From contig JBBTCT010000018.1 in NCBI GenBank assembly GCA_038060895.1, positions 32,001 through 96,000 of the forward strand: a stretch of DNA of 64,000 nt. Direction: 5' to 3'. Positions 1,095-50,932 of the stretch are shown in pieces (position 1 is the stretch's first letter; the number at the start of each line of letters is the position of its first letter). Under the pieces are notes generated by a model. That model was not told the DNA's origin. It did no database searches and saw only the letters and a list, made by a program, of their open reading frames with translations. The DNA is from Planctomycetota bacterium. GTDB taxonomy: Bacteria; Planctomycetota; MHYJ01; WSZJ01. Position numbers and translations under genes: made by a program.

Positions 1095-2114
1095 TTACAC
1101 GACGATCTGCGAGCTCCCGCGGCCCTCTATGACGATGTCGCCCAGGTCCTCGTACTTGCGGACGACTTCGACGATTCCCTGCTGCGCCGCTTCCACATCG
1201 GACAGCCGCTGCGGGCCCAGGTACTCCATCTCCTCGCGCAGGAGGTCCTGCGCGCGCTTCGACATGTTTCTGAAGAACTTGTCCTTGAGGTCGTCGTCTG
1301 CCACCTTGAGCGCAAGCCCGAGCTGGCCGGTTTCGATGTCCTTGAGGATGATCTGGATCCCGTGGTCGTCGATCCGCTTGATGTCCTCGAACACGAACAT
1401 CAGCTTGCGGATCCGGTCCACCATCTGCGGGTCTTCTTCCTCGAGCGAATCGAGGATTGAGCGTTCCGTGGAGCGGTCGGTGAGATTGAGGATGGTGGCG
1501 ACGGACTTGACGCCGCCGGCGCGTCGAAGGTCTTCCGCGAAGAGCGAGGACAGGCGCTTTTCGAGCGCGCCCTCGACCTGGGCGATGACTTCGGGGCTGG
1601 TGACTTCCATCTGCGAGACGCGGCGGACGACCTCGATCTGGCGCTGCTGGGGGAGGCCCTGCAGGATCTCCGCAGCCTGGTGGGCCGGGAGGTAGCTGAG
1701 GATCAGCGCGACCGTCTGGGGGTGCTCGTCCGACAGGAACGTCGAGAGGTTCTGCGGGTCCGCCTTGCGCAGGAACCCGAAGGGCGTCGATCGCGTCGCC
1801 GCCTCGATCGTCTCAACGATTTTCTTCGCTTCGTCCGGATGCAGCACCCGGGAGAGCAGGTCGCGCGCCGCGGGAAGCCCGCCCTGCGCCGTCACGTCCA
1901 GCTGCATCGTGTTGCGCAGGAAGTCCTCGAGCACCTGGTCGCGCTCCTCGCGCGTCACGCCTTCGAGCTTCGCGATCTCAACCGAGACTTCGCGGAGCAT
2001 TTCCTTGTCCATCTCCCCGAGGATTTTCGCCGCGAGGTCAGGATCGATGGACACCAGCAGCACCGCACTCTTGCGGATGCCCGACTGTTCCAGCGCTTTA
2101 GCGGGACTCATCAC
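1095..2114 (-). CDS. fliG: Flagellar motor switch protein FliG
   Basis: EHPQTVALILSYL, GGVKSVATILN, MFVFEDI, NMSKRA motifs. Confidence 0.97.
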   Translation of the reverse strand: MMSPAKALEQSGIRKSAVLLVSIDPDLAAKILGEMDKEMLREVSVEIAKLEGVTREERDQVLEDFLRNTMQLDVTAQGGLPAARDLLSRVLHPDEAKKIVETIEAATRSTPFGFLRKADPQNLSTFLSDEHPQTVALILSYLPAHQAAEILQGLPQQRQIEVVRRVSQMEVTSPEVIAQVEGALEKRLSSLFAEDLRRAGGVKSVATILNLTDRSTERSILDSLEEEDPQMVDRIRKLMFVFEDIKRIDDHGIQIILKDIETGQLGLALKVADDDLKDKFFRNMSKRAQDLLREEMEYLGPQRLSDVEAAQQGIVEVVRKYEDLGDIVIEGRGSSQIVV

Positions 2115-3703
2115 TCACCTCGCACAATCCAGTTTCGGATCAGGTTCGCGCCGGCCTGCGGGTTCCTGCGCATCAGATCGGTCACTTTTTCCTGAAGGCG
2201 GGCGCTCCGGAGATCGGCCGCCGCCGTCGCCGGGTCGAGCGAAGGTCCTTCCGGCGGGATCGCGAGCTCGGCGCGGACGCGTTCAATCTCCGCGAGAACG
2301 TCCCGCGGGGCCGAAGCGCGCACGATGCGCCAGATGAAGAAGAGACCTGCCAGGACGAGCAGGACCAGCACGGCCTTTTCGCCGTACCGGGTCGCGATGT
2401 CGCGCCACTCGCTCGCGGCGATCGGCGCCACGACGGCCACGGGCTCCGGAAACGTCACCGGGTGCATCTTGATCTGCGCCGCCTCGACACTGCACGCCCG
2501 CGCTACCAGAAGCGTCCAGTCGCGCAGGTTGTTGGCGATGTTCTCCTGCGTCGCTTCGGCCGAGGCCGGCTTCGAACCGTCCGCTCCGAGCGACGCTTCG
2601 GCGTAGGGAACCACCACGGCCAGCGTCACTCCCTTGATCTTGCCGGGAGGCGTCACCGTGTGCGTCTTCTCCGATCCGAACACGTTGTCGAACTCTCGGC
2701 GCGAAGTGGTCTCGTTTCCAGCAACCGTTTCCGGCGAGCCGGGGACCGCGGTGCCGGGTTCGGCGAGGCCGCCGGGTTCGAGGGCGGAAGCGACTCCCGG
2801 GATGCCGCCCACGGCCGACGAGGGCTTTTCAGTCGTCTCCGAGACGCGAAGGGCGGACTCAGGCGCGAGGGCCTTGTTGGTCTCCTTCTCGACGCTTTCC
2901 ATGTCGAGTTCGACCGCCGCCTGCACCGACACCTTCGAGAGGAACGACAGCGCGTCCTTCGCCTTCTTCGCCGCGAACTCCTCGTGTTCCTTCTTGAGCT
3001 GAAGCGCCGTCCCCGCCAGCACGTGCGGCTGCCGCGGATCGGGGACCTCGTACGAGTTCATCGCCGTGTCCGTGATGATCACCGCTTCCGGCGCCAGGTT
3101 CGGGATGCTCGCCGCCACCATCTCGGCGATCGCCCGGCCGTTCACGTCCCCGGGCGTCCGGCCACGCTTCAGCTTGAGATGCACGCTCGCCTTCGCCGGC
3201 CGCGCGTTGATCGTCGTCTCCGGGTCTTCCCCCGGTGCGATCTGCACCGCGGCCGCTTCGACGGCGTCCATGGAAGCGATCGCGCCTTCGAGCCTGCGGC
3301 GAAGGGTGTCCGTCCACTGCAGCCGCTGGCGCGCTTCGGTCGTGGTCCACACGTCCTGCGTCCAGAGCCACTCGAACTGGTTCTTGCCCTGGGGGAGGAT
3401 GCCGTCGCCGTAGAGCTGGACGAAGAGCTCGTCGCGCTTTTCCGGGGGCACCATGACGATGCCGTTCTCCAGCTTATACGGGACGGCTTTGGCTTTGAGG
3501 GACTCGAGCACGGCCGCGGTCACGTCGGCGGGCGAACCGGCGGGCGTCAGGGGCACCATCGACCGTCCGGGCGCGGCCGCGAAGATCAGGAAGAAGGCGG
3601 CGACGACAACGAGCGCGAGCAGCGCGAGCGAGACGCGCTGGGCACCGGAGAGTTTCGCGAGGAACTCCTGGACCCGTTTGAGCTGCTCTCGAAGAACGTC
3701 CAT
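2111..3703 (-). CDS. fliF: Flagellar MS-ring protein FliF
   Basis: Two TM segments, AKASVHLKL, VAASIPNL..EAVIITD, C-terminal NPQAGANLIRNWI; upstream of fliG. Confidence 0.9.
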   Translation of the reverse strand: MDVLREQLKRVQEFLAKLSGAQRVSLALLALVVVAAFFLIFAAAPGRSMVPLTPAGSPADVTAAVLESLKAKAVPYKLENGIVMVPPEKRDELFVQLYGDGILPQGKNQFEWLWTQDVWTTTEARQRLQWTDTLRRRLEGAIASMDAVEAAAVQIAPGEDPETTINARPAKASVHLKLKRGRTPGDVNGRAIAEMVAASIPNLAPEAVIITDTAMNSYEVPDPRQPHVLAGTALQLKKEHEEFAAKKAKDALSFLSKVSVQAAVELDMESVEKETNKALAPESALRVSETTEKPSSAVGGIPGVASALEPGGLAEPGTAVPGSPETVAGNETTSRREFDNVFGSEKTHTVTPPGKIKGVTLAVVVPYAEASLGADGSKPASAEATQENIANNLRDWTLLVARACSVEAAQIKMHPVTFPEPVAVVAPIAASEWRDIATRYGEKAVLVLLVLAGLFFIWRIVRASAPRDVLAEIERVRAELAIPPEGPSLDPATAAADLRSARLQEKVTDLMRRNPQAGANLIRNWIVRGE

Positions 3704-3750
3704 GGCTGCTCCGTGTTAGGAGGGTGGCTTGTGCGGCTTTTTGAATCTTG

Positions 3751-3836
3751 GGTCTAAGGTCGAAGGTCGAAAGTCGAAGGGAACTGCCTCGAATTACGCT
3801 GATTTCCTTCGACCTTCGACCTTTGACATTCGACCC
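3751..3836. repeat. Inverted tandem heptamer repeat (GGTCGAA)x4 ... (TTCGACC)x4
   Basis: Read directly in the fliE-fliF gap. Confidence 0.85.
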
Positions 3837-3854
3837 TTCCCGGAAACGGTGTTC

Positions 3855-4157
3855 CTAGATCCGCATCCGCTGGATTTCCTCGTACGCATCAACAAGCTTG
3901 TTCCTGATCTGCATCAGCGCTTCGAACGCCAGCTCGGCCTTGCGGACTGCGGTGAAGACGCCCGCCACGTCATCCGTCTTTCCCGTCGCGAGCGCGGCCT
4001 GCGCCGAGTCCGCTTCCTTCTGGAGCGCGTTGACCTTCTCCATCGATTCCTTCAGGACGTCCTTGAACGCCTTCTCGGGAGCTTCCGCCTGCCCGGCCAG
4101 CTTCGGCCCCTCGGGTCGGATCGGCTGCGGCCCGATCGGCAGAATGAAATCGCTCAT
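3855..4157 (-). CDS. fliE: Hook-basal body protein FliE
   Basis: KAELAFEALMQIRNKLVDAYEEIQRMRI. Confidence 0.96.
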   Translation of the reverse strand: MSDFILPIGPQPIRPEGPKLAGQAEAPEKAFKDVLKESMEKVNALQKEADSAQAALATGKTDDVAGVFTAVRKAELAFEALMQIRNKLVDAYEEIQRMRI

Positions 4158-4558
4158 GCGAGGATCCTCAGGGCCGCGTTGAACAGACCCTTGGTGGCGT
4201 CCATCGCGGTGACGTTGAGTTCGTAGGCCCGGGTCGCGTCCATGAGATTGACCATCTCGACGACCGGGTTGACGTTGGGCATCTGCACGAAGCCTTCTGA
4301 GTTCGCGTCCGGGTGGCCCGGGTCGTGTTCCATCCGGAAAGGAGAAGAGTCGTTGACGATCCTCTCGACGTGCACGCCTGCGACTCCTGGCTGTCCCTTG
4401 GCGCCGACGCGGAATACCACGTCCTGCCGGCGATAGGGACTCACGCGGCCGTGCGCATCGCGCGTCGTGTGGGCGTTCGCGAGGTTGTTCGCGATGACTT
4501 CCGTGCGCATCCGCTGGGCGACGAGCGCGCTGGCCGAAACGTCGAGGGCGTTGAGCAT
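4154..4558 (-). CDS. flgC: Basal body rod protein FlgC
   Basis: ANNLANAHTTR, PYRRQ, DPGHPDA, MPNVNPVVEMVNL..ATRAYE. Confidence 0.97.
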   Translation of the reverse strand: MLNALDVSASALVAQRMRTEVIANNLANAHTTRDAHGRVSPYRRQDVVFRVGAKGQPGVAGVHVERIVNDSSPFRMEHDPGHPDANSEGFVQMPNVNPVVEMVNLMDATRAYELNVTAMDATKGLFNAALRILA

Positions 4559-4561
4559 GGT

Positions 4562-4990
4562 TTAGGGGCGCTCCCTGATGGCGGACTCGATGAGGTCGAA
4601 CTGCCGCGACAGCAGCTGCGTCAGCGCGGTGTAGAAGGCCGCGTTCTTCGCCATCTTCGCGGCCTCGACTTCTGCAACGACGTCGTTGCCGTCATGTCCG
4701 GGGATGCCCCCCGTGGGGATCGGCGACAGCGTGCGGAGGATGGAGAAATCGCTGCCGGAAGCGAACGCCGGCTGCGCCGGCATGCCGCCGAGCACGACGG
4801 GCTGGGTCGCGCGACCGGCGTCGGTCGCCCTGCGAAGCGCCGCCTGGAACTCATCGACCGGGAGGTCCTGCCCCCGGAATCCCGGCGTGCTCGCATTCGC
4901 GATGTTGTTGAGGATCACTTCATGGCGCTTCCACGAGAAGGCAAGGGCCGACTCGAGGGTGGGAATGGCGCCGGCGCTCGTGACGTCCAT
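4562..4990 (-). CDS. flgB: Basal body rod protein FlgB
   Basis: RHEVILNNIANASTPGF, DGNDV..E; start refined to ATG at 4990. Confidence 0.92.
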   Translation of the reverse strand: MDVTSAGAIPTLESALAFSWKRHEVILNNIANASTPGFRGQDLPVDEFQAALRRATDAGRATQPVVLGGMPAQPAFASGSDFSILRTLSPIPTGGIPGHDGNDVVAEVEAAKMAKNAAFYTALTQLLSRQFDLIESAIRERP

Positions 4991-5044
4991 CTTTCCTGTT
5001 TCCTCAACGTGGGCGGTGTCTAGACGGATTCCCGACCCAAAGAA

Positions 5045-5191
5045 AGCAAACCCGGGGCCGGGGGGGTGGTATTCCTGGACTCGCTTCAACTTCTTTAAGA
5101 ACAAGTACTTACAGATGAAGCGTCTGGACTGCCACCCGGCGGGGGTTTCCCTGCTTCTAGTTTCGGCAAGAACCGCCGGCGAAATTTGCCG
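5045..5191 (-). promoter_or_regulatory. Putative sigma54 promoter of flgB operon with IHF-like site and upstream activator sites
   Basis: Minus strand CGGCCCCGGGTTTGCT (GG-N10-GC) at 5060-5045; AT-rich site 5088-5112; two overlapping CGGC-N7-GCCG dyads 5164-5178 and 5177-5191. Confidence 0.6.
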
Positions 5192-5304
5192 GAATCCCGC
5201 GGGAAAGGTTCGTCATTCGGCCTCCCATCGAATGCCGAACTCTGCTCGCGAGAGTGGCCGCACTTCGGGGGTCCGAGTCTCACAGGGCTATACTCGCGGG
5301 CCAG

Positions 5305-8300
5305 ATGTCGGACATTCCCCGAACCTTGACCACCCGCGATCGCGCTCTGGCCGAGCTGGTCCGCTTGCGCGGGTGGGCCGATGAAGCCGCGATCCAGCGC
5401 GCGATCCAGGAAGCGTCGAGCGCCGCCGGGGCGCGCGACCTGGGCGCCATCCTTGCGGCTTCGGGCGTCCTCACTCCGAACCAACTCCGGGAACTCGAAG
5501 CCGCGATGGACGGCCGACCCTCCGGCGCCCAGGGCTCCGGATCCTCCTCCGCGCTGGACCGCACCGTGGCGAAATCCGACGCCGGCGTGACCATCGCCGC
5601 CGCTTCCGGCCGGAAGGTCGGCGATACCGTGGGGCCCTATCGCATTCTGCGCGAGCTCGGCCGCGGCGGGATGGGCGTCGTCTACCGCGCGCTCCAGCCT
5701 GAGTTGCGCCGGGAGGTCGCCCTCAAAGTCATGCTCTCCGGCGGCGACGAAAGCAGCTCTGACGTCGAGCGCTTTCGCCGCGAGGCCGCCGTCGTCGCCA
5801 GGATGGGCCGTCACCCGAGCCTCGTCCAGATCCACGACATCGGCCGCGACGGCGAGCGGCTCTATTTCACGATGGACTTCATCGAAGGGCGGTCACTGAA
5901 ACAGAGGATTGCCGAAGAAGGGCCGCTCTCCGGACGCGAGGCCGCGCGGATTGCCGCCGATCTTGCCTCCGCGCTCGCCTTTTCCCACGCGGCTGGCGTC
6001 GTGCATCGCGACGTGAAGCCGGCGAACGTGCTGATGGACCGCGAAGAGCGGGCTTTCCTCGGCGATTTCGGACTGGCGCGCGACCTGTCGAGCAGCGTCG
6101 CGCTCACGCAGAGCGGCGCGCCGATCGGGACGCCGGCTTACATGAGCCCGGAGCAGGCTGAAGGCCGGGCTTCGCGCATCACGCCGCTGTCCGACGTCTA
6201 CTCCCTAGGCGCGACCCTCTACGAGATGCTCACCGGCCGCCCGCCGTTCGACGGCGAGTCGCAGATGGACATCATCCGGCAGGTCCTCGAGAGGGACCCC
6301 GTCCCGCCGCGTTCGCTTCGTCCGGAGATTCATCGCGATCTCGACGTCATCTGCCTGAAGGCGATGCACAAGGTACCCGCCCGGCGATACGAGTCGGCGG
6401 CCGCGCTTGAGGCAGACCTGCGCCGCTTCCTGAACAACGACCCGATCCTCGCGCGCCCTCCCGGTTTTGGGGAAAAGCTCGTTTCGCGCGCCCGCCGCCA
6501 CCGCGTCGCGCTGGCCGCCGCGGCTTGCGTTCTCTTCGCCGGTGCAGGATTCGGCGGGTGGGCCGCATGGCGGGTGAAGAAGCGCGACGACGCCGAGAGC
6601 GACCGCGCCCGGACTCAGCGAGCGAAACAGGATGAGTACGCCCGGCGACAAAGCGAGGTGACGCCCCTGCTCATCGAGGGGAAAGACCTCATGACCCGCT
6701 GGGACGACGCGCGAAAGGTCGGCGATTGGCGCGGCCGCAACCGCTTCGCCGCCGCCGCGATCGCGACCCTGACCAGGGCCGCGGAGATCTTCCCCGAAGG
6801 CGCCGAAGTCCATTTCCAGCTCGGGATGGCCCTTCGCCGCGGGGGGTGGCATGAGAAGGCCCTCGCCTCCCTCGAGCGTGCCGTCTCCATCGACCCGCTT
6901 CATACCCTGGCCTGGTTCGAACATGGAGACATCACGGAGAGCCGCCTCCGCGAAGTTCGCGGCTCCCTGGTGCGAACCGGGATCGTCGCGATCCAGGGAA
7001 GCCAGGGATTCGTCCCCACCGGCATGAACAGGACGTTGATGTTCAGGAAAGAGGCCGGCGAGGGAGATGCCCCGCGCCTGCTTGAAACGGCGAAACGGGA
7101 CTTCCGCCGGACCCTCGAAACGGGCGCCGGCGCCGAACGGGCCGCCTACGGCCGCGCGATGCTCGCGTTCTACGCGGATCGCTTCGACGAGGCCCTCCGT
7201 GAGCTCGACGCCGCACTCGCCGCCAATCCCTACTTCACCGATGCGCTCGAAGCGCGCGCGTCGATCCTCGAGTTCTCGACGCGCGACATGGCGCGCGGGA
7301 TCGCCGACCGGGAAGCGATCCACCGCCTGGAACCCTACAACCCCTGGTATACGAACGAGCTCGCACTTTCTTTTCAGATGGCCGGCCGGGACAAGGAAGC
7401 GCTGGCGCTGGTCGCCGAGGCGGTCCTCAACTGCGACCACCCCGACGTCCTGACACGCGGCGCCTCGATCCGCTTCTCATCCGGCGACTACGATGGATGC
7501 CTGGAACTGGCGAAGCGCGCGCTGGCGACGAGGGAGGGAAGCCGTGCCGGCCGGGCCGATGCGGCGATCTACGTTCCCTACGTGGCGATGATGAGGCGCG
7601 AATTCGACGCCGCGCTTCGCGGGGTGGACGAGCTGGAGGGCGACCTGGGGCCCGATTTCGCGGGCGCGATGCGGGGGGAGATCCAGATGGCCCGCGGGGA
7701 CATGGGCGCTTCGGCCCGGGCGTTCCGAGGCATCACGCCGGGAAGCTATGTCGAGCAGGTCGAGTCGCTCGGGGCCGCCTTCGCAGAGTGGTGGTGCGGC
7801 AATCTCGATCGCGCGCGTCCCCTCTCCGAGACCGCCGTCCGGATGCGCGTCCTCCCGGCGGCGCCCGTCATCCGGGGAATCGTGCGAATGGACCAGGGCG
7901 ATCTTGCCGGCGCCCTCGGAGATTTCGAGACCGTCCGCCGCGACGAGCCGGCGCTCAACGTCAACTACTCAAACCTCGCCGGCGCACGCTTCCTGACGGG
8001 CGACTACACGGGCGCGATCACGGCGCTCGAAGAGGCCGTTTCGACGACGCTGACGTCGCCGGAGCAGAAGGAGGCCGTGAAGCGGTTTTTCGAGCCGCTG
8101 GCGAAACGCGCGGGCGCGGCGAAGTCACCGGCGGAGGCGGCGAAGGTCGTGGAAGGGATCGCGGGACTCCTCGTACTCGCGGGCGCCCAGGCGACCGACG
8201 AGACGATGCGCGCCGGGGTTCGTGAGGCGCAGCGCGGCGTGTTCTACATCCTGCAGGCGTTTTACATTCACCACGAAATGTGGAAGGAAGCGATCGGGGC

Positions 8301-31400: not shown

Positions 31401-32384
31401 ATGGAGATGACTCCTCGCGAGGCGTTCGACGCAAGCCTCGAAGATTTCAGGGGCTTTCAGGCGGAGATCGCCAAATTTGGCCTCACTTGGCTTCAGAAGC
31501 TATCTGCCCACATGAAGCCGTCGGTGGGTGCTCAGCAACTTCGCGAGATCGCCGACCAAGAGGCTGGGAGACTCATGCGGTACATCATCCTTCGAGTAGG
31601 CGCAGGCATTCCCGAATCGAACACTCGCGCGAAGGCGCTCCCCGCACTCTTCTACCGAGGGCTATTCCCAGAGACGGGCCCTGCGGAAACCCTAGCTCAG
31701 ATTGCGGACTACAGAGCCGACGGTCCGGTTGCGTTCTCTCGCTGCTTGTTCAAGCGGAGCGGCATGATCCCACCGCTTGAGTTGCAGGTTCTCGCGGCGA
31801 AGCAGACGAAGGGCCAGATGGACGACTATGAGAAGATTTTTCGCCTTTTTGCGGAGGGTCTCGCCGAGAAACACGGTCTCCCTGACACACTGGATGCAGA
31901 ACCGGCCCAGAGGGGACGTCCTGTCGCGGTCGATGAGATTGAGGAAATCAGTCCGCTGAGAGGGGCCGAGTCAGCGACGGACCAGCGCGCCGCTTGGGAG
32001 CTTCTGAGTTCCGCGATGCGCTCCGGAGCCGTGGACATAGGAGTTCGCGAGAATCACGCGAACAATCTCCTGGCGAACACAAGCTCGACAGGAGCGGGAC
32101 TAAATTACATCTTTTCCGTCGGATGTCTGGCAGTACCGGTCGTTTTCTACTTCGGGGGCTGGAAAATCGGACTCGCCGTACTGGTCCCCCTTGCGCTGAT
32201 CTACCAGCTCATCGGAGTCATGGCCCGTTCACGAGTGCGGCGATTCGCGATGGAGGACCGGATCTTATTTCACACGATGATCGAAACGGATTCGATTCGA
32301 CCAAGGATCAACCCGAACGCCTTTCCGCCTCCATTCACCGCGGAGGAGTTGGCAAGGCTCATCGACCAATCTCGACCGCGCTAA
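31401..32384 (+). CDS. Hypothetical protein with two C-terminal TM helices
   Basis: 327-aa ORF from MEMTPRE; cargo region. Confidence 0.6.
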   Translation: MEMTPREAFDASLEDFRGFQAEIAKFGLTWLQKLSAHMKPSVGAQQLREIADQEAGRLMRYIILRVGAGIPESNTRAKALPALFYRGLFPETGPAETLAQIADYRADGPVAFSRCLFKRSGMIPPLELQVLAAKQTKGQMDDYEKIFRLFAEGLAEKHGLPDTLDAEPAQRGRPVAVDEIEEISPLRGAESATDQRAAWELLSSAMRSGAVDIGVRENHANNLLANTSSTGAGLNYIFSVGCLAVPVVFYFGGWKIGLAVLVPLALIYQLIGVMARSRVRRFAMEDRILFHTMIETDSIRPRINPNAFPPPFTAEELARLIDQSRPR

Positions 32385-44374: not shown

Positions 44375-46522
44375 ATGGCCGCTTCCACCCGAACTTCGCT
44401 GGCGCTCAAGGGAATGACCTGCGCGAGTTGCGTGGGGCGCGTCCAGACTGCGCTGGCGGCGGTCCCCGGGGTGTCCCGTGCGAACGTCAATCTGGCGACG
44501 GAGCGCGCCACGGTCGAGTCGGAGGGCGTCGATCCGGTCGCGCTGGTTGCGGCGGTGCGTGGCGCCGGGTACGAGGCGTCGCTGGTCGAAACGGGGGCGC
44601 CTCCGGCCGCGGCGGAGGCTGCGCGCGGCGACCTCCGTCTGCCGGTCGCGCTCGCTGGAGCGGCCGCGCTGATGGCGCTCTCGATGGACGAGATGTTCCT
44701 CGGCCACGGACGCCATTTCGTTCCCGACCCTCCACTCCGGTGGATCCTGCTCGCGATCGCCACTCCGGTCCAGCTGTGGTGCGGTTGGCCCTTCCTGCGC
44801 GGCGCCATCGCCTCGGCCAGGCACTTCGCCGCCGACATGAACACGCTCGTCGCGGTGGGCACCTGGTCGTCGTTCCTCGTCTCGTTCGCGGCGGCGCTCG
44901 GCCACGGCCATGGTTTTTATTTCGAAACCGGCGCGACGATCATCGCGCTGATCCTGCTCGGGCGAACGCTCGAACACCGTGCCCGGCGGCGCGCCGGAGC
45001 GGCGATCCGCAAGCTCATGGAACTGCGGCCCGCGACGGCGCGCGTCGTCGTCGCGGGGACGGAATCGGAGGTGCCCGTCGAGCGGGTCCGCGCCGGAGAC
45101 CTCGTGCGCGTCCGCCCTGGCGAGCGGCTCGCCGTGGACGGCGAGGTCGTCGAGGGCGAGTCGCCGATCGACGAATCCATGGTCACCGGCGAATCCATGC
45201 CCGTCACCCGTCGCCCCGGCGACCCCGTCACCGGCGGCACCGTCAACGGAAGCGGCTCGCTGCTCTTCAAGGCCACGCGCGTCGGCGGCGAAACCCTGCT
45301 CGCGCAGATCGTCCGCGCGGTCGAGGAGGCGCAGACGCGCAAGGCGCCGGTCGAGCGGTTGGCCGACCGGGCTGCGGGCGTCTTCGTGCCCTTCGTTCTC
45401 ATCGCCGCCGCCGTGACTTTCGCCGGCTGGTGGATCGCGAAGAACGACCCCGCCGCCGGTTTTCTCCCGGCCGTCGCGGTCCTCGTCATTGCATGCCCCT
45501 GTGCTCTGGGCCTGGCAACGCCGACCGCGGTGATGGCCGGCATCGGCCGCGGCGCGGAAAAAGGGATTCTCATCCGGGGCGGGGAAGCGCTGGAAGTCGC
45601 GCACAAACTGAGGACGATCGTCTTCGACAAGACGGGCACGCTCACCGAGGGCCGCCCCGAGGTCGTTGACGTCCTGACGCTCAGTCCAGACTTCCTCCCA
45701 CTCGCGCTCGCCGCAGAAAAGCGCAGCGAGCACCCGCTTGCCCGCGCCATCGTCCGCTTCTCAGAAAAGAAAACATCGGGCTCCCCCGAGCCCGACGATT
45801 TCTTCTCGTACTCGGGAAGCGGTGTCGAAGCGACCCTCCAGGGACGCACCGTCGTCGTGGGCTCGCCGGAATTCCTCGCCGGCCGTGGAATCGACGTCGC
45901 CCCCGCCGGGACGTTCGTGATGCGGAACCGCGTCGAGGGGCGCACCGTCGTGGCGGCAGCCATGGAAGAGCGCCTGCTCGGCGCCTTCGCCGTCGCCGAC
46001 CCCGTCCGCCCCGCCGCCCGCGAAGCCGTAGATTCCCTCAAGCGCCGCGGACTTGCCGTCGTCATGCTCACCGGCGACAACGCCGTCACAGCAGAATCCG
46101 TCGCAAAGGCCGCCGGCATCGACCGCGTCGTCGCCCAGGTCCTCCCGAAGGAAAAGGCCGCGAAGATCACGGAGCTCCAGTCCGCCGGCCCTGTCGCCAT
46201 GGTCGGCGACGGCATCAACGACGCCCCCGCCCTCGCCACCGCCGACGTCGGCATCGCGATGGGCACCGGGACGGACATCGCGGCCGAAGCGGGACACATC
46301 GTGCTGGTGCGGGGCGACATCCGCGACGTGGAGACGGCCATCAACCTGAGCGCGCGCACCCTGCGCACCATCCGCCAGAACCTGTTCTGGGCGTTCTTCT
46401 ACAACCTCGTGCTCATTCCCGCCGCGGCGCTCGGCTGGCTCAACCCGATGCTCGCGGCGCTTGCAATGGCGTTCTCGAGCGTGAGCGTGGTGATGAATTC
46501 GCTGAGGTTGAGGCGGGCTTAG
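44375..46522 (+). CDS. copA: Cu(I)-translocating P1B ATPase
   Basis: GMTCASC HMA, TGES, CPC, DKTGT, SEHP, GDGINDAP, YN, MAFSS. Confidence 0.93.
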   Translation: MAASTRTSLALKGMTCASCVGRVQTALAAVPGVSRANVNLATERATVESEGVDPVALVAAVRGAGYEASLVETGAPPAAAEAARGDLRLPVALAGAAALMALSMDEMFLGHGRHFVPDPPLRWILLAIATPVQLWCGWPFLRGAIASARHFAADMNTLVAVGTWSSFLVSFAAALGHGHGFYFETGATIIALILLGRTLEHRARRRAGAAIRKLMELRPATARVVVAGTESEVPVERVRAGDLVRVRPGERLAVDGEVVEGESPIDESMVTGESMPVTRRPGDPVTGGTVNGSGSLLFKATRVGGETLLAQIVRAVEEAQTRKAPVERLADRAAGVFVPFVLIAAAVTFAGWWIAKNDPAAGFLPAVAVLVIACPCALGLATPTAVMAGIGRGAEKGILIRGGEALEVAHKLRTIVFDKTGTLTEGRPEVVDVLTLSPDFLPLALAAEKRSEHPLARAIVRFSEKKTSGSPEPDDFFSYSGSGVEATLQGRTVVVGSPEFLAGRGIDVAPAGTFVMRNRVEGRTVVAAAMEERLLGAFAVADPVRPAAREAVDSLKRRGLAVVMLTGDNAVTAESVAKAAGIDRVVAQVLPKEKAAKITELQSAGPVAMVGDGINDAPALATADVGIAMGTGTDIAAEAGHIVLVRGDIRDVETAINLSARTLRTIRQNLFWAFFYNLVLIPAAALGWLNPMLAALAMAFSSVSVVMNSLRLRRA

Positions 46523-46776: not shown

Positions 46777-47715
46777 CTACTTGATGGCTTGGGGCGTTCT
46801 CTCCCATACCTTTCGGAGTACGGTTTCCAGGCGGTCGCGCACTTCCTGGTCCGCGTGACTCTTCATCAGGTCCGCGATCACGGCCGCTGCCGACGCCCCC
46901 TTAGCAACGATCGCGTCGCTCGCGCTCAGCCGCTCGTTCGTGTCCTTCGACACGAGGTGGTCGGCGAGCGCGCGGACCCTGTCCTCGTCCTCCTTGGCGA
47001 GCTTCGGCGGGCTCGTCGCCGCGAGCTCGGCCAGGATCTCCTCGACCTCGGGGCGCATGACGTAGACGTACTCGAACGTCACTCGCGGGTTCTTGAACTC
47101 GCGCACGCGGATGTGAACGTAGCCGCCCTCGCCGCTGCGGAGGCGGAAGCCGTTGGTGGCGGGCTGTGTCTCTTTGAGGTCCACCTCGCCGGCCTGAAGC
47201 GCCTCTGCCATCTCCTTGCGCTTTGTCGCGTCGATTTTTCCGAAACCCTCCGGGACGCCGGGGGCGATGCCGTGGAGGCCGCGGATGGTGATCATCGAAG
47301 CGCCGCCCGCGGAGCGGACGATCGCGACGTCGCCCTTGTGGCCTTCGCCGACTTTGTCCTCCTCGAAGCGCCACGTTTCGCGGCCGAAGCAGTCGAGCTG
47401 GAACTGGCCGATTTTGAAGTACGTCGGGAACGCGCCGGCGACGCCGCGGTGGATGATCTTGTCCTCCTTGTTGATGCGGGCGCGGATCTCGAGTGAGTAG
47501 AGCTTGAATCGTTCGGCGTCAAAGGTGCAGGAGGCTTCGCCCGTCTTTGCGATTTCCTTCTCAATGCCGGGCTCGACGAGGAAGACGTGGTACTGGTCGA
47601 CGTCCTCATTTTTCGGCCAGGTCACGGTGAGCTTGCCATCCTTGAACGTGCTCTTGAGGTCGTCGGCAACGGAGGGGAGGCAGAGGAGGCTGGCGAGTGC
47701 GAATGCGAGGCGCAT
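46777..47715 (-). CDS. Secreted hypothetical protein with C-terminal HEAT-like domain
   Basis: Signal peptide; DQEVRDR motif. Confidence 0.65.
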   Translation of the reverse strand: MRLAFALASLLCLPSVADDLKSTFKDGKLTVTWPKNEDVDQYHVFLVEPGIEKEIAKTGEASCTFDAERFKLYSLEIRARINKEDKIIHRGVAGAFPTYFKIGQFQLDCFGRETWRFEEDKVGEGHKGDVAIVRSAGGASMITIRGLHGIAPGVPEGFGKIDATKRKEMAEALQAGEVDLKETQPATNGFRLRSGEGGYVHIRVREFKNPRVTFEYVYVMRPEVEEILAELAATSPPKLAKEDEDRVRALADHLVSKDTNERLSASDAIVAKGASAAAVIADLMKSHADQEVRDRLETVLRKVWERTPQAIK

Positions 47716-47954: not shown

Positions 47955-49418
47955 ATGATCAAAGTCTCTTCCACCAAGCGCCTCGACCGCACCGACGTCC
48001 TCATTCTCTTTGCCGAGGAGCCGTCGTCGAAGGACGTCAGGGCGCTTCACAAGTGGGACGCGCTCTCCGGGGATTCGAGCCGGCGGCTGGCCGCGGCGCT
48101 CGAGAAGGAGAATTTCCGGGGCAAGGTGGGGCAGACTTTCGTGTGGCACGCGGGGGACTCCCGCGCGGAGCGCGTCATCGTCGCGGGCGTCGGAAAGGCG
48201 GCGACGCGCGACGTGGACCTGACGATCAGGGCGGCCGGCGCGGCGGCGAAGAAGGCGAAGGAGATCGGTGCCACGAAGGTGATGTGCGCGCTTCCGCCGG
48301 CAGGCAAGCTCGGCGAGGAACGCAACGCGCAGGCGGTGACGGAAGGGCTGATCCTGGGCGCGTACGAGTTCGACAAGTACCGGCAGCCGAAGGAGACGAA
48401 GGCGTTTGAGGCGGCCGAGATTCTCGGCGCGCCGGAGCGGGCGGTGAAGCTCGCGGAGATTTTTTCGCGCGCGACCGTTTACGCGCGGGATCTCGTGAAT
48501 ACGCCGGCCGGCGACTGCGCGCCGCGGCATCTTGCGGAAGCCGCGAAGCGGCTGGCCGGGTCGAACGTGAAGGTGACGGTGTGGGGGCAGAAGGAGATCG
48601 AGAAAAAGGGGATGGGCGGGCTGATCGGGATCGGGAAAGGCTCGGACGAGCCGTATCACTTCATCATGCTGAAGTGGGAGGGGAAGAAGGGCTCGAAGAA
48701 GGTCGCGATTCTCGGGAAGGGGATTACGTTTGATTCGGGCGGGCTGTGCATCAAGCCGGCGGACGGGATGGGGACGATGAAGTGCGACATGAGCGGCGCG
48801 GCGGCGGTGCTGGCGATGTTCAGCGCGCTGCCGGACCTGAAGCCGGACTGCACGGTGTACGGCTACATTCCCGCGGCGGAGAACATGACGGGCGGGAGCG
48901 CGGTGAAGACGGGCGACGTCCTGCGCACGGCGAGCGGGCGGACGATCGAGGTGAACAACACCGACGCCGAAGGGCGCGTCGTCCTTGCCGACGCGATGGT
49001 CATCGCGCGCGAGGACAAGCCTGACGAGATGATCGATCTCGCGACGCTCACGGGCGCCTGCGTCGTCGCGCTGGGCGACCAGGTCGCCGGCATGTTCTCC
49101 AACGACGACAACCTCGCCGCCGGCCTCGACGCCGCTTCCAAGCGCGCCGGCGAGCGTCTCTGGCGGATGCCGATCGTCGCCGAATACCGCGACCTCCTCC
49201 GGTCCGACATCGCCGACATCAAGAATTCCGGCGGCCGCGGCGGCGGCGCGATCCAAGGGGCGCTCTTCCTGCAGGAATGGGCGGGGGACCAGCCTTGGGC
49301 GCACCTGGACATCGCGGGGCCGGCGTGGACTGACAAGGGGATGTCCTTCTGCCAGCCGGGAGGGACCGGGTTCGGGGTGCGGACGTTGCTTGAGTACGTG
49401 ACGGCGCAAGGAAAGTAG
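47955..49418 (+). CDS. pepA: Leucyl aminopeptidase (M17)
   Basis: GKGITFDSGG, MKCDMSG, NTDAEGR, ATLTGA, HLDIAG. Confidence 0.97.
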   Translation: MIKVSSTKRLDRTDVLILFAEEPSSKDVRALHKWDALSGDSSRRLAAALEKENFRGKVGQTFVWHAGDSRAERVIVAGVGKAATRDVDLTIRAAGAAAKKAKEIGATKVMCALPPAGKLGEERNAQAVTEGLILGAYEFDKYRQPKETKAFEAAEILGAPERAVKLAEIFSRATVYARDLVNTPAGDCAPRHLAEAAKRLAGSNVKVTVWGQKEIEKKGMGGLIGIGKGSDEPYHFIMLKWEGKKGSKKVAILGKGITFDSGGLCIKPADGMGTMKCDMSGAAAVLAMFSALPDLKPDCTVYGYIPAAENMTGGSAVKTGDVLRTASGRTIEVNNTDAEGRVVLADAMVIAREDKPDEMIDLATLTGACVVALGDQVAGMFSNDDNLAAGLDAASKRAGERLWRMPIVAEYRDLLRSDIADIKNSGGRGGGAIQGALFLQEWAGDQPWAHLDIAGPAWTDKGMSFCQPGGTGFGVRTLLEYVTAQGK

Positions 49419-49474
49419 GGAGTGAGGAGTGTTGAGGGTTGAGCAGGGAGCAGGGAGGAGTCGGGAGATTTGAG

Positions 49475-49723
49475 ATGACCGCGATCTCTGAACTTGGACC
49501 ATCGCTTGTGATCGGGGCTACCTTTACGGCCTTCTCCGCCGTGAAGTTCTATGGCCTCGCCCGCGGCATCGAGGGCGGAGGCGGCAAGCCGCTTCAGACG
49601 CGCCTCTGCGGATCCTGACCGACCTGGCCGTCGTGGGCGCGGTTCGCGGCCCCGGTCGTGATGCTGGCCATCGGGCTGGCTAACTTCGGCTACGCCATCG
49701 CCGTCCTGTCGCGCAGCTCGTGA
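49475..49723 (+). CDS. Candidate selenoprotein, 82 aa, two TM helices, CGSU motif (UGA at 49616-49618)
   Basis: Manual translation MTAISELGPSLVIGATFTAFSAVKFYGLARGIEGGGGKPLQTRLCGS-U-PTWPSWARFAAPVVMLAIGLANFGYAIAVLSRSS; hairpin 49620-49658. Confidence 0.65.
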
Positions 49724-49726
49724 GAC

Positions 49727-50932
49727 TTAGCAGGCGCAGATTCCTCCGAACATGGAGGGGCCGCGCCTTCTCGACCGCATTCGCTGCGCGTAGCGTGAAA
49801 GTGTCAGTGCGCGGGATTTGCGTGGCGAAATCGGCGCGAGGCGGGCGACGATGAGGCACGCGATGCAGGCGAGGAAGAGCGTGCCGGCGGCAATGGCGAG
49901 AGTCCGGAGGGCGGATACGGTCCAAGGGTCGAGGCGCGGAGGCCTTGCCGGATTGGATCGCGGCGGCTCGGGCCGCGGCTCGGCCGCAATCAGCTCGGCC
50001 TCGCCGATCGGAAGTTCCGCGAAGTCCCCCGCCGCGGCCCGCGAGATCCCGCACCTCCTGCACTCCGCCAGGACTTCCGCAATGCCTGGCTCCCGTCCTT
50101 CGAGCACCAGCCTCCATTCGACTCGCTGAAACCCGGTGCGCCACCTTTCCGCTGTCGAAACATTGCGCCGGATGGCGGCCATCGCCGCGTCAATACTCGC
50201 TTCCGCACGCCCCGAACCCACGCGCCAGAGGAAAAACGTCGTCTCGAGGCGCCTGCTCAGTTCGCTCTTCGCCGGGTGACCGAGGTCGAGCGCCCGGACC
50301 CAGGCCCAGATCGCCAGGTTCTGAGCGCCCCGGCGGCTGAGTTCGTCGCCCAGGACGAGCATGGCGTCGGGGAAGCGCGGGCAGCGGGTGGCGAGCAGGA
50401 GGAGGCGGAAGTAATCGACGCGGGGCCCGGCGCCCGGCGTTGGCCAGGTCGAGTACGGCTCGTCCAGAAAGCCGATGTTCCGCTGAGAAGCGCTCCACCG
50501 CAGCGCCCGAAGATGAAAATCGCCGAGGCCCGGGCAGACGTCCTGGTTGCGCAGAAGCGCCGCCGACAGCGATTCGGCGGCGCTCAGGAATCCGCCCGCG
50601 CGCTCCCGCAGGTCCGCAAGAAGCGCCGCGGCGCCGGCGTTTCCTGGGTCGAGCTGTTCGATCGAGGCGAGTACGGTGCCAGCCTCGCCGTCGCGTCCCA
50701 GCGCCGCCCGGGCTTCCGCGAGAAACAGCCGCGTCGGCAAATCCATAATGTTCGACCGGAGCCTTGTGTCCAAACGGACTTCCCGAAGCGTCCAGTATGT
50801 CTCGCCGTGCGAGGGAACCTGACCCGAGACCAGGTCGAACACGTCTTCCGGCTCCGCAGCCGCCGATGGCGGGCAGGCCCGGGAAAACGAACCGGACAGA
50901 ATCGTGGCAAGCAGGGCGAGCCGAATCGTCAT
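49727..50932 (-). CDS. Exported TPR-like protein with C-terminal TM
   Basis: Signal peptide, TPR-like helices, TM then basic tail. Confidence 0.6.
   Translation of the reverse strand: MTIRLALLATILSGSFSRACPPSAAAEPEDVFDLVSGQVPSHGETYWTLREVRLDTRLRSNIMDLPTRLFLAEARAALGRDGEAGTVLASIEQLDPGNAGAAALLADLRERAGGFLSAAESLSAALLRNQDVCPGLGDFHLRALRWSASQRNIGFLDEPYSTWPTPGAGPRVDYFRLLLLATRCPRFPDAMLVLGDELSRRGAQNLAIWAWVRALDLGHPAKSELSRRLETTFFLWRVGSGRAEASIDAAMAAIRRNVSTAERWRTGFQRVEWRLVLEGREPGIAEVLAECRRCGISRAAAGDFAELPIGEAELIAAEPRPEPPRSNPARPPRLDPWTVSALRTLAIAAGTLFLACIACLIVARLAPISPRKSRALTLSRYAQRMRSRRRGPSMFGGICAC

Follow-up and report, generated by a model that had tools for sequence, protein, structure and literature searches.

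The 64,000-nucleotide stretch analyzed here (the window; positions 32,001 to 96,000 of contig JBBTCT010000018.1 in assembly GCA_038060895.1 of a Planctomycetota bacterium) contains, at 49475-49723 on the forward strand, what is very probably a real gene, encoding a selenoprotein of 82 residues in the inner membrane. Its in-frame UGA, codon 48, is in all likelihood decoded as selenocysteine (Sec), a view drawn from sequence comparisons, and the same comparisons place the gene in a rare, unnamed family without a known family model. The family is new, although the kind of system to which it belongs is well known. An earlier note, written from the DNA letters, had proposed a selenoprotein at this position, and that interpretation is supported by Sec machinery in the genome, by homologues with Cys at the site, by conservation of the TGA itself and by conservation downstream of it; all the checks that the note had named as able to refute it came out in its favor.

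The gene occupies 82 codons and is defined by its translation and by its homologues. A purine-rich region that would serve as ribosome binding site lies 7-21 nt before the ATG at 49475 (49453-49467, + strand) and, as read from the sequence, comprises GGGAGGAG at 49453-49460 and GGGAG at 49463-49467, in agreement with the start that the earlier note had described. This ATG is supported as the start codon because the homologues begin no more than 1-2 residues from it (alignment A1). From there the frame runs MTAISELGPSLVIGATFTAFSAVKFYGLARGIEGGGGKPLQTRLCGS-TGA-PTWPSWARFAAPVVMLAIGLANFGYAIAVLSRSS-TGA, giving 82 residues with the first TGA as U and a terminal stop TGA at 49721-49723. Translation and the list of open reading frames (ORFs) agree that there is a single frame in which a transmembrane (TM) helix is followed by the TGA, Pro-Thr-Trp and a second TM helix, and that it finishes 3 nt short of a convergent gene. 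The internal TGA (49616-49618) is three codons past Cys45 (codon TGC, 49607-49609), so that the CxxU arrangement, with Cys45 as the partner of Sec, is confirmed. No start codon lies close after the TGA in the window sequence, and the fraction of G or C at third codon positions 3′ of the TGA is 0.97. Is TGA perhaps not a stop in this organism at all? It terminates 15 of the 40 coding-like ORFs of at least 150 aa in the window and is, as had been stated before, an ordinary stop there.

That an ORF with such a TGA exceeds chance follows from the conservation of the TGA, the frame and the downstream peptide in other genomes. A six-frame search of 41 related genomes, including the source (G000), returned clear homologues in G000, G001, G007, G008 and G010, each with exactly one TGA, set in LCG[ST]-U-P[TD]W. 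Matches in G022 and G038 and a second match in G010 (E 0.002-0.006) were set aside because they do not have the motif. When 401 genomes sampled from the phylum were searched with a profile, six matched, all six with one TGA, which added G063, G077 and G161. This gives TGA forms in eight genomes including the source, distributed over six GTDB families (f1, f2, f4, f37, f51 and f83), and it is in these eight that the homologues with a conserved TGA looked for by the earlier note are found. The motif L/I-C-G-[ST]-U-P-[TDS]-W, followed in frame by a second hydrophobic helix, is present in all eight; seven are full length, and the G007 copy is without its 5′ part.

Did selection act on the region beyond the TGA as on a coding sequence? 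Comparison of the window's gene with that of G007 over the 32 codons after the TGA gave 12 identical, 10 synonymous and 10 non-synonymous codons, with 7, 5 and 15 base differences at codon positions 1, 2 and 3 (15 of 27 at the third position). Comparison of G010 with G008 gave 14 identical, 8 synonymous and 8 non-synonymous codons, with differences of 5, 6 and 13 (13 of 24 at the third position). This excess of synonymous and third-position changes leads us to conclude that the downstream region is under coding constraint in this frame, and, as alignments A1 and A2 show, the peptide past the TGA is itself conserved, a point on which the earlier proposal could have failed.

Homologues with Cys in place of Sec were found as well. 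In a collection of 5.8 billion proteins two full-length relatives, P0003 and P0004, read CGSCPTW, the form (CGxCPTW) that had been predicted for them, and the same collection holds three 47-residue proteins that end in ...LCGS or ...LCGT, one of which, P0002, is the window's own cut piece. A family profile built from four Sec and two Cys forms, searched against 1.84 billion representatives, gave 104 proteins at E<=0.001, 47 of them at E<=1e-10, which were sorted from their sequences, partly by eye. Forty-one stop exactly one residue short of the Sec column, and Cys occupies the column in 42; another 15, which are fragments or pieces with frameshifts, do not cover it, and one is ambiguous. The expectation that ORF callers miss the gene is thereby borne out, P0002 and about 40 other cluster representatives ending at the same column. 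The other residues seen in the column are Arg in three representatives (P0026, P0030 and P0038), Gly in one (P0066) and Trp in one (P0070). Codons for Arg, Gly and Trp are one base from TGA, and genetic codes 25 and 4 give Gly and Trp, respectively, for TGA; mutation of the copies, or translation with a different code, may explain these five.

The DNA of the Cys forms has TGC or TGT at the column in the four loci considered (L041, a 17-residue match, was left out, and two Nitrospira matches were dropped, as they lie inside a 1156-aa ORF). C48 is invariant in alignment A3, and the Sec/Cys column is, across the sequences compared, the most conserved residue of the family. The Cys three residues before the column (Cys(-3)) is present in 39 of the 41 shortened, presumed Sec forms versus 21 of the 42 Cys forms, so that the partner Cys is nearly obligatory only when Sec occupies the column; seven further Cys forms have a Cys at -6 (xCRLxGxC). 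Ten Cys forms that we looked up are all "hypothetical protein" or unnamed entries from metagenomes, mostly in singleton clusters. Longer, fused relatives were sought in a dedicated search that scored none, and a 269-aa representative with a histidine-phosphatase domain is a one-off.

The source assembly, which is 86.5% complete, encodes the Sec machinery whose presence the earlier note had wanted confirmed: selA (541 bits), selB (310.7 bits, plus its C-terminal part), selD (364 bits) and a tRNA-Sec (71.7 bits; called by ARAGORN as tRNA-SeC with anticodon TCA). The selD gene, outside the window at G000:C2:48628-49548 (locus L010), has one in-frame TGA and is therefore itself a selenoprotein gene. 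selA scored above the cut-off in all seven other genomes with a TGA form, and below it (best match 31 bits) in G419, the one Cys-form genome with DNA. Could the TGA be a misread TGC or TGG? Twelve DNA runs, mostly labeled as groundwater or aquifer metagenomes, contain the stretch, and in X8, an independent run not flagged as a possible source, one contig spans 49542-49692 and bridges the TGA, which it keeps unchanged, with 0 differences; contigs of X5, X6 and X9 end near the TGA without bridging it.

Bacterial selenocysteine insertion sequences (bSECIS) have been modeled as a loop of 3-9 nt on a stem of 4-16 bp, located 16-37 nt past the UGA, with a G within the first two loop positions, mostly as G[G/U], and a minimum free energy (MFE) of -7.5 kcal/mol or lower (PMC13188914, Fig. 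2 legend). The SECIS-like stem-loop of the window's gene (49620-49658) has the outer stems CGACC/GGTCG and GGCCG/CGGCC, folds with an MFE of -23.2 kcal/mol and fits these published constraints with either of two apical arrangements: GGGC-GCG-GTTC, a 9-bp form with the GCG loop at 49639-49641, 20 nt past the UGA, or CGCG-GTT-CGCG, with the loop at 49642-49644, 23 nt past it. Equivalents that conform to the model are found in all eight TGA forms (52-nt MFE -10.0 to -28.0), each as a hairpin of at least 4 bp whose loop begins G[G/U] or NG[G/U] and lies 17-23 nt past the UGA. They include a GUC loop in G007, GCUCC-GGU-GGGGC in G001, GGUCU loops on CCGC/GCGG stems in G010 and G008, a UGGCU loop on a 7-bp stem in G063 (-13.4 kcal/mol), AUGC-AGGUCG-GCAU in G077 and GACGACC-GUU-GGUCGUC in G161 (-9.5 kcal/mol); the stem sequences vary between the TGA forms, and position and loop start are kept. 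Shuffling of the six GC-rich genes gave equally good hairpins in 38-79 of 500 cases, that of the two less GC-rich ones in 2 of 500 for G063 (L034) and 0 of 500 for G161 (L036). In the ungapped alignment a fixed-register helix had 67.5% of its cells paired versus 53.9 ± 5.8 in shuffled alignments, of which 9 of 500 reached the observed value.

We consider the encoded protein to be a membrane hairpin. An AlphaFold2 (AF2) model made with 32 family rows (mean predicted local distance difference test, pLDDT, 82.9; predicted template modeling score, pTM, 0.61) places helices at residues 4-30, 40-45 and 53-81. Predicted TM helix 1 (49487-49543, about residues 5-23) draws on the AF2 helix, on hydropathy and charge counts and on conservation, and predicted TM helix 2 (49643-49705, about residues 57-77) on the AF2 helix, a Kyte-Doolittle mean of about 1.9 and the conserved L64 and G67. 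Between them lies a basic, Gly-rich loop (residues 24-56; 49544-49642), predicted to be cytoplasmic, which consists of GGGGKP, a short helix and C45-G-S-U48-P-T-W51. Averaged over 32 members, the loop has 4.7 Lys or Arg versus 0.9 Asp or Glu, and the N-terminal tail has 0.09 Lys or Arg and about one acidic residue. It is established for membrane proteins that positively charged segments stay inside (the positive-inside rule), and from the basic loop we infer that the tails are outside and that the CxxU loop is cytoplasmic, with the motif just before helix 2. Our confidence in this two-pass topology, which comes from prediction and charge counts, is moderate. Invariant columns in alignment A1 are G31, G34, G35, P39, L40, C45, G46, C/U48, P49 and W51; nearly invariant residues in alignment A2 are G14, F17, K24, G27, G35, G46, C/U48, L64 and G67, of which Lys24 lies at the interface, directly after predicted helix 1. 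The window copy retains every conserved residue. A two-copy complex prediction with a natural Cys form scored 0.00 and counts neither way. Foldseek matched the model best to KcsA chains, with E of at least 1.4 and TM-scores of about 0.43-0.45, and to other helical structures with E above 1, and we rejected these matches as support for a channel fold.

How might such a protein be made and used? UGA48 would be read as Sec by means of the SelA, SelB, SelD and tRNA-Sec that the genome encodes, likely helped by a SelB-binding hairpin in the coding sequence about 20 nt past the UGA, and translation would end at the second TGA. Folded as a helical hairpin, the product would start outside with a short acidic N-tail, cross the membrane as helix 1, form a basic, Gly-rich loop of about 32 residues in the cytoplasm and cross back as helix 2, and it would present Cys45-Gly-Ser-Sec48-Pro-Thr-Trp at the loop end, just before helix 2. 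The residue in the Sec/Cys column would be the functional one, with Sec forming a pair with Cys(-3) that cycles between the selenol/thiol and the selenenylsulfide states. What chemistry this would serve, redox or metal-binding, we propose with low confidence. The most favored option, still tentative and held at somewhat less than even confidence, is a membrane-tethered redox centre directed against an oxidant that is membrane-borne or membrane-proximal, with recycling of the centre by a cytoplasmic thiol reductant, for example thioredoxin. The probability left after this option and the metal-binding rival discussed below would lie with other roles, for example as a subunit of a membrane complex or in sulfur or selenium trafficking.

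A number of observations weigh against the selenoprotein interpretation or against parts of it. Among the 41 shortened representatives the stop codon is established as TGA for P0002 only, and Arg, Gly or Trp, rather than Cys, stand at the column in five of the 104. Because half of the Cys forms have no Cys(-3), the idea of a strict two-residue redox cycle is weakened. The presence of selA in every carrier says little, as selA is common, being above the cut-off in 285 of the 401 genomes of the phylum sample. No RNA run is listed among the runs that contain the stretch. Around the eight TGA forms and the Cys-form loci no neighbor was found that recurs across families. The hairpin is the most exposed part of the case: the fold of the window's gene is not more stable than its dinucleotide shuffles (z +0.97; 174 of 200 at least as stable), a hairpin that is as good and fits the model arises in 79 of 500 shuffles, moving the helix by +2 or +3 columns from the fixed register costs little of its score, and two of the four Cys-form loci also hold a hairpin that satisfies the model, which is loose. 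RNAalifold found no consensus hairpin in the ungapped eight-sequence alignment, a result of shifts of 1-5 nt in hairpin position from one lineage to another. The stem-loop of the earlier note thus stands as drawn, being essentially the MFE fold with its loop 20 nt from the UGA; as evidence, it is weaker than the note implied. Overall, we regard the hairpins as consistent with Sec insertion and modestly supportive of it, not as decisive.

The last point against concerns the fate of the gene within its own genus, where it is intact only in the source and in G001 and is a relic or deleted in the other six genomes, from which it follows that it is dispensable, accessory and being lost there. In the five congeners without a match (G002-G006) DNA homology reaches the stop of the upstream gene pepA and then ends. 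Of the small gene, G002 (L050) retains an in-frame relic of 30 codons in which the first 14 residues are fused to the last 15, G004 (L049) has a remnant of the second half only, and G003, G005 and G006 have nothing recognizable; in G007 (L021/L042) a deletion takes the 3′ end of pepA together with ~20 codons at the start of the small gene. The relics in G002, G004 and G007 reflect either gene decay or assembly artifacts of metagenome-assembled genomes.

Does the family correspond to anything already described? The window's protein matched no NCBIfam family at E<=10 and, in Pfam, only DUF5822 at E 0.32; among 32 members searched against family models no match was better than E 0.0075 and no model was matched by more than three members. 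A profile search of the sequences in the PDB gave nothing below E 0.96, Foldseek comparison of the AF2 model with the PDB gave no match at E<=0.001, searches with PADLOC and Rfam gave nothing usable, and in the ESM Atlas the Cys form P0003 matched only clusters without a name and, at chance level, named ones. A 2026 review lists 119 prokaryotic selenoprotein families, each with a Pfam, TIGR, NF, cd or PTHR identifier (PMC13188914, Table 1), and none of these fits, the families with cd or PTHR identifiers alone having been judged from the table, not by direct search. The literature that we consulted on the motif and on membrane or Planctomycetes selenoproteins yielded nothing relevant; the supplementary tables of deep-Sep (PMC12013277) and BSepDB (PMC13326102) could list the family. 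The earlier claim that the family is outside the known bacterial selenoproteins thus agrees both with the lack of a match to the models of known selenoprotein families and with the 119-family table.

The gene is like the bacterial selenoproteins with a SECIS element inside the ORF (PMC13188914) in that its UGA aligns with Cys, in CxxU, in a G-started loop 16-37 nt past the UGA and in the presence of selA, selB, selD and tRNA-Sec in the genome. It differs from the catalogued families (PMC13188914) in encoding an 82-residue two-helix membrane protein that is not thioredoxin-like and that no searched model matched. Among these families, the putative mercuric transport selenoprotein (MerT-like, PF02411, C/SxxU; PMC13188914, Table 1) is similar to it as a small integral membrane protein with an xxU-type thiol/selenol pair. 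However, there was no match to PF02411 (the window's protein at E<=10; 32 members at E<=0.1), and no mer genes lie near the family copies examined. MerT has three helices, whereas the protein described here has two. SelW, SelT and SelH (Rdx, PF10262) have a CxxU in which Sec is the second residue of the pair (PMC13188914), as is the case here, but PF10262 was not matched and our AF2 model is an all-helical TM hairpin, not an alpha/beta thioredoxin-like fold. The likeness to DsbB and VKOR consists in a CxxC-type pair at the end of a membrane helix, able to react at or in the membrane. Those proteins are four-helix bundles with the pair facing the periplasm, whereas ours has two helices, a pair predicted to be cytoplasmic and no Pfam match. 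Finally, the eukaryotic SELENOK and SELENOS are also very small and membrane-anchored, with a Gly-rich cytosolic segment; they are single-pass proteins with Sec next to the C-terminus and a SECIS element in the 3′ untranslated region, and the searches made detected no sequence relationship to them.

The genes around the family members give little guidance. Upstream in the window is a 487-aa ORF, named pepA by the earlier note and taken from the ORF list (47955-49418, + strand), which is outside the selenoprotein gene; it lies upstream in G000, G001 and G007, its 3′ end is conserved in five further congeners, and the neighborhood is conserved inside the genus only. No sigma-70-like promoter was found in the interval searched (49250-49950), from which co-transcription with pepA is inferred, and pepA is the probable transcription partner of the small gene. 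The convergent gene on the other side (49727-50932, - strand), whose stop is 3 nt from that of the selenoprotein gene, encodes 401 aa and has no Pfam family; the same holds for Pfam matches to a 312-aa ORF with a signal-peptide-like start at 46777-47715 (- strand). In G161 (L048 2182-3133) a thioredoxin gene (PF00085, E 1.6e-20) is directly upstream on the same strand, preceded by a borderline TerB-like ORF (24.3 bits versus a cut-off of 24.4). G008 has a divergent gene with a DUF255 thioredoxin domain, and a GNAT gene downstream, and G077 has an MMPL transporter as neighbor. Thioredoxin-type neighbors, possible partners of the selenoprotein, at two of eight copies are a hint, not a pattern. 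One Cys-form contig has a glyoxalase-fold gene and a molybdopterin oxidoreductase nearby. On L039 (= L028), a run of at least six paralogous ORFs of ~135-185 aa extends over 1481-6456 around the Cys-form gene; most of them begin MKHRKLRIAWSVAWG..., and the run has the look of small membrane proteins of one family arranged in tandem.

The rival that survives best accepts the Sec gene as read and holds that Cys-x-x-Sec-Pro is not a redox catalyst, and instead serves to bind soft metals or metalloids (Hg, Cu, Cd, As, Se or Te) or to hand them on. Small Mer transport proteins with their paired cysteines and P1B ATPases with their CPx motif are analogues for such a role. A thiol/selenol pair followed by Pro at a membrane interface would suit it, and a MerT-like membrane selenoprotein with C/SxxU is in the published table (PMC13188914). 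In the window a 715-aa heavy-metal P-type ATPase (HMA, E1-E2 ATPase and HAD domains; 44375-46522, + strand) lies 3 kb upstream, and the weak TerB-like ORF near the G161 copy points in the same direction. However, the link of the ATPase to the small gene is unproven because two genes intervene, one of them on the other strand. Neither PF02411 nor any metal-transport family was matched, no metal-resistance gene recurs beside the eight TGA or the four Cys forms, and in half of the Cys forms the site has only one Cys. We regard metal binding as unlikely, and as next in rank after redox chemistry.

Far less probable is that the TGA is a true stop, so that the gene would encode a 47-residue peptide with one helix, followed by a frame that is a relic or due to chance. 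That the 47-aa form has been called here and in ~40 other clusters is what such a gene would give, the hairpin of the window is not significant, and the gene decays in congeners. But a relic would hardly account for P-[TDS]-W and a second helix with L64 and G67 that are conserved across six GTDB families and align with the Cys forms, nor for the third-position bias of the changes past the TGA; Cys occupies the TGA column in 42 representatives, and a separate downstream product would have no start codon closely after the TGA. We judge this rival to be very unlikely. Still less credible, and the weakest of the three, is readthrough of the UGA without Sec, either as low-level leakage or with a standard tRNA as near-cognate decoder (Trp, Cys or Arg), for which Arg, Gly or Trp in five of 104 representatives and the modest hairpin evidence might be cited, but against which stand selA in all eight carriers, with selB, selD and tRNA-Sec also in the source genome, Cys, the usual counterpart of Sec, at the homologous residue, and a TGA retained in eight genomes with no drift to a sense codon.

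What, then, does a small membrane selenoprotein gene mean for our view of bacterial selenoproteins? Gene callers systematically cut such genes at the UGA, and the catalogue of the bacterial selenoproteome is still growing; this family has been invisible in annotation, where it appears as 47-residue "hypothetical proteins" or as nothing, and no Pfam or NCBIfam model covers it. With it, an integral-membrane scaffold joins a list of selenoproteins dominated by soluble thioredoxin-like proteins, and the conserved Sec/Cys residue identifies as chemically active a tiny membrane protein that otherwise has no distinguishing features. The versions with Sec and with Cys that occur in nature, and those with one or two Cys, are a ready series for testing the benefit of selenium at a membrane interface, and the repeated loss of the gene within a single genus offers a small case study of selenoprotein turnover. 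A bolder suggestion, which we consider speculative and on balance improbable, is that the protein is the founding example of ~80-residue two-pass membrane selenoproteins whose helical hairpin keeps a selenol at the cytoplasmic membrane face and that act as membrane-tethered, thioredoxin-recycled peroxidases or reductases for lipid-phase or membrane-proximal substrates. If this were true, the family would be a functional bacterial counterpart of the phospholipid-hydroperoxide glutathione peroxidase, built on a completely different scaffold.

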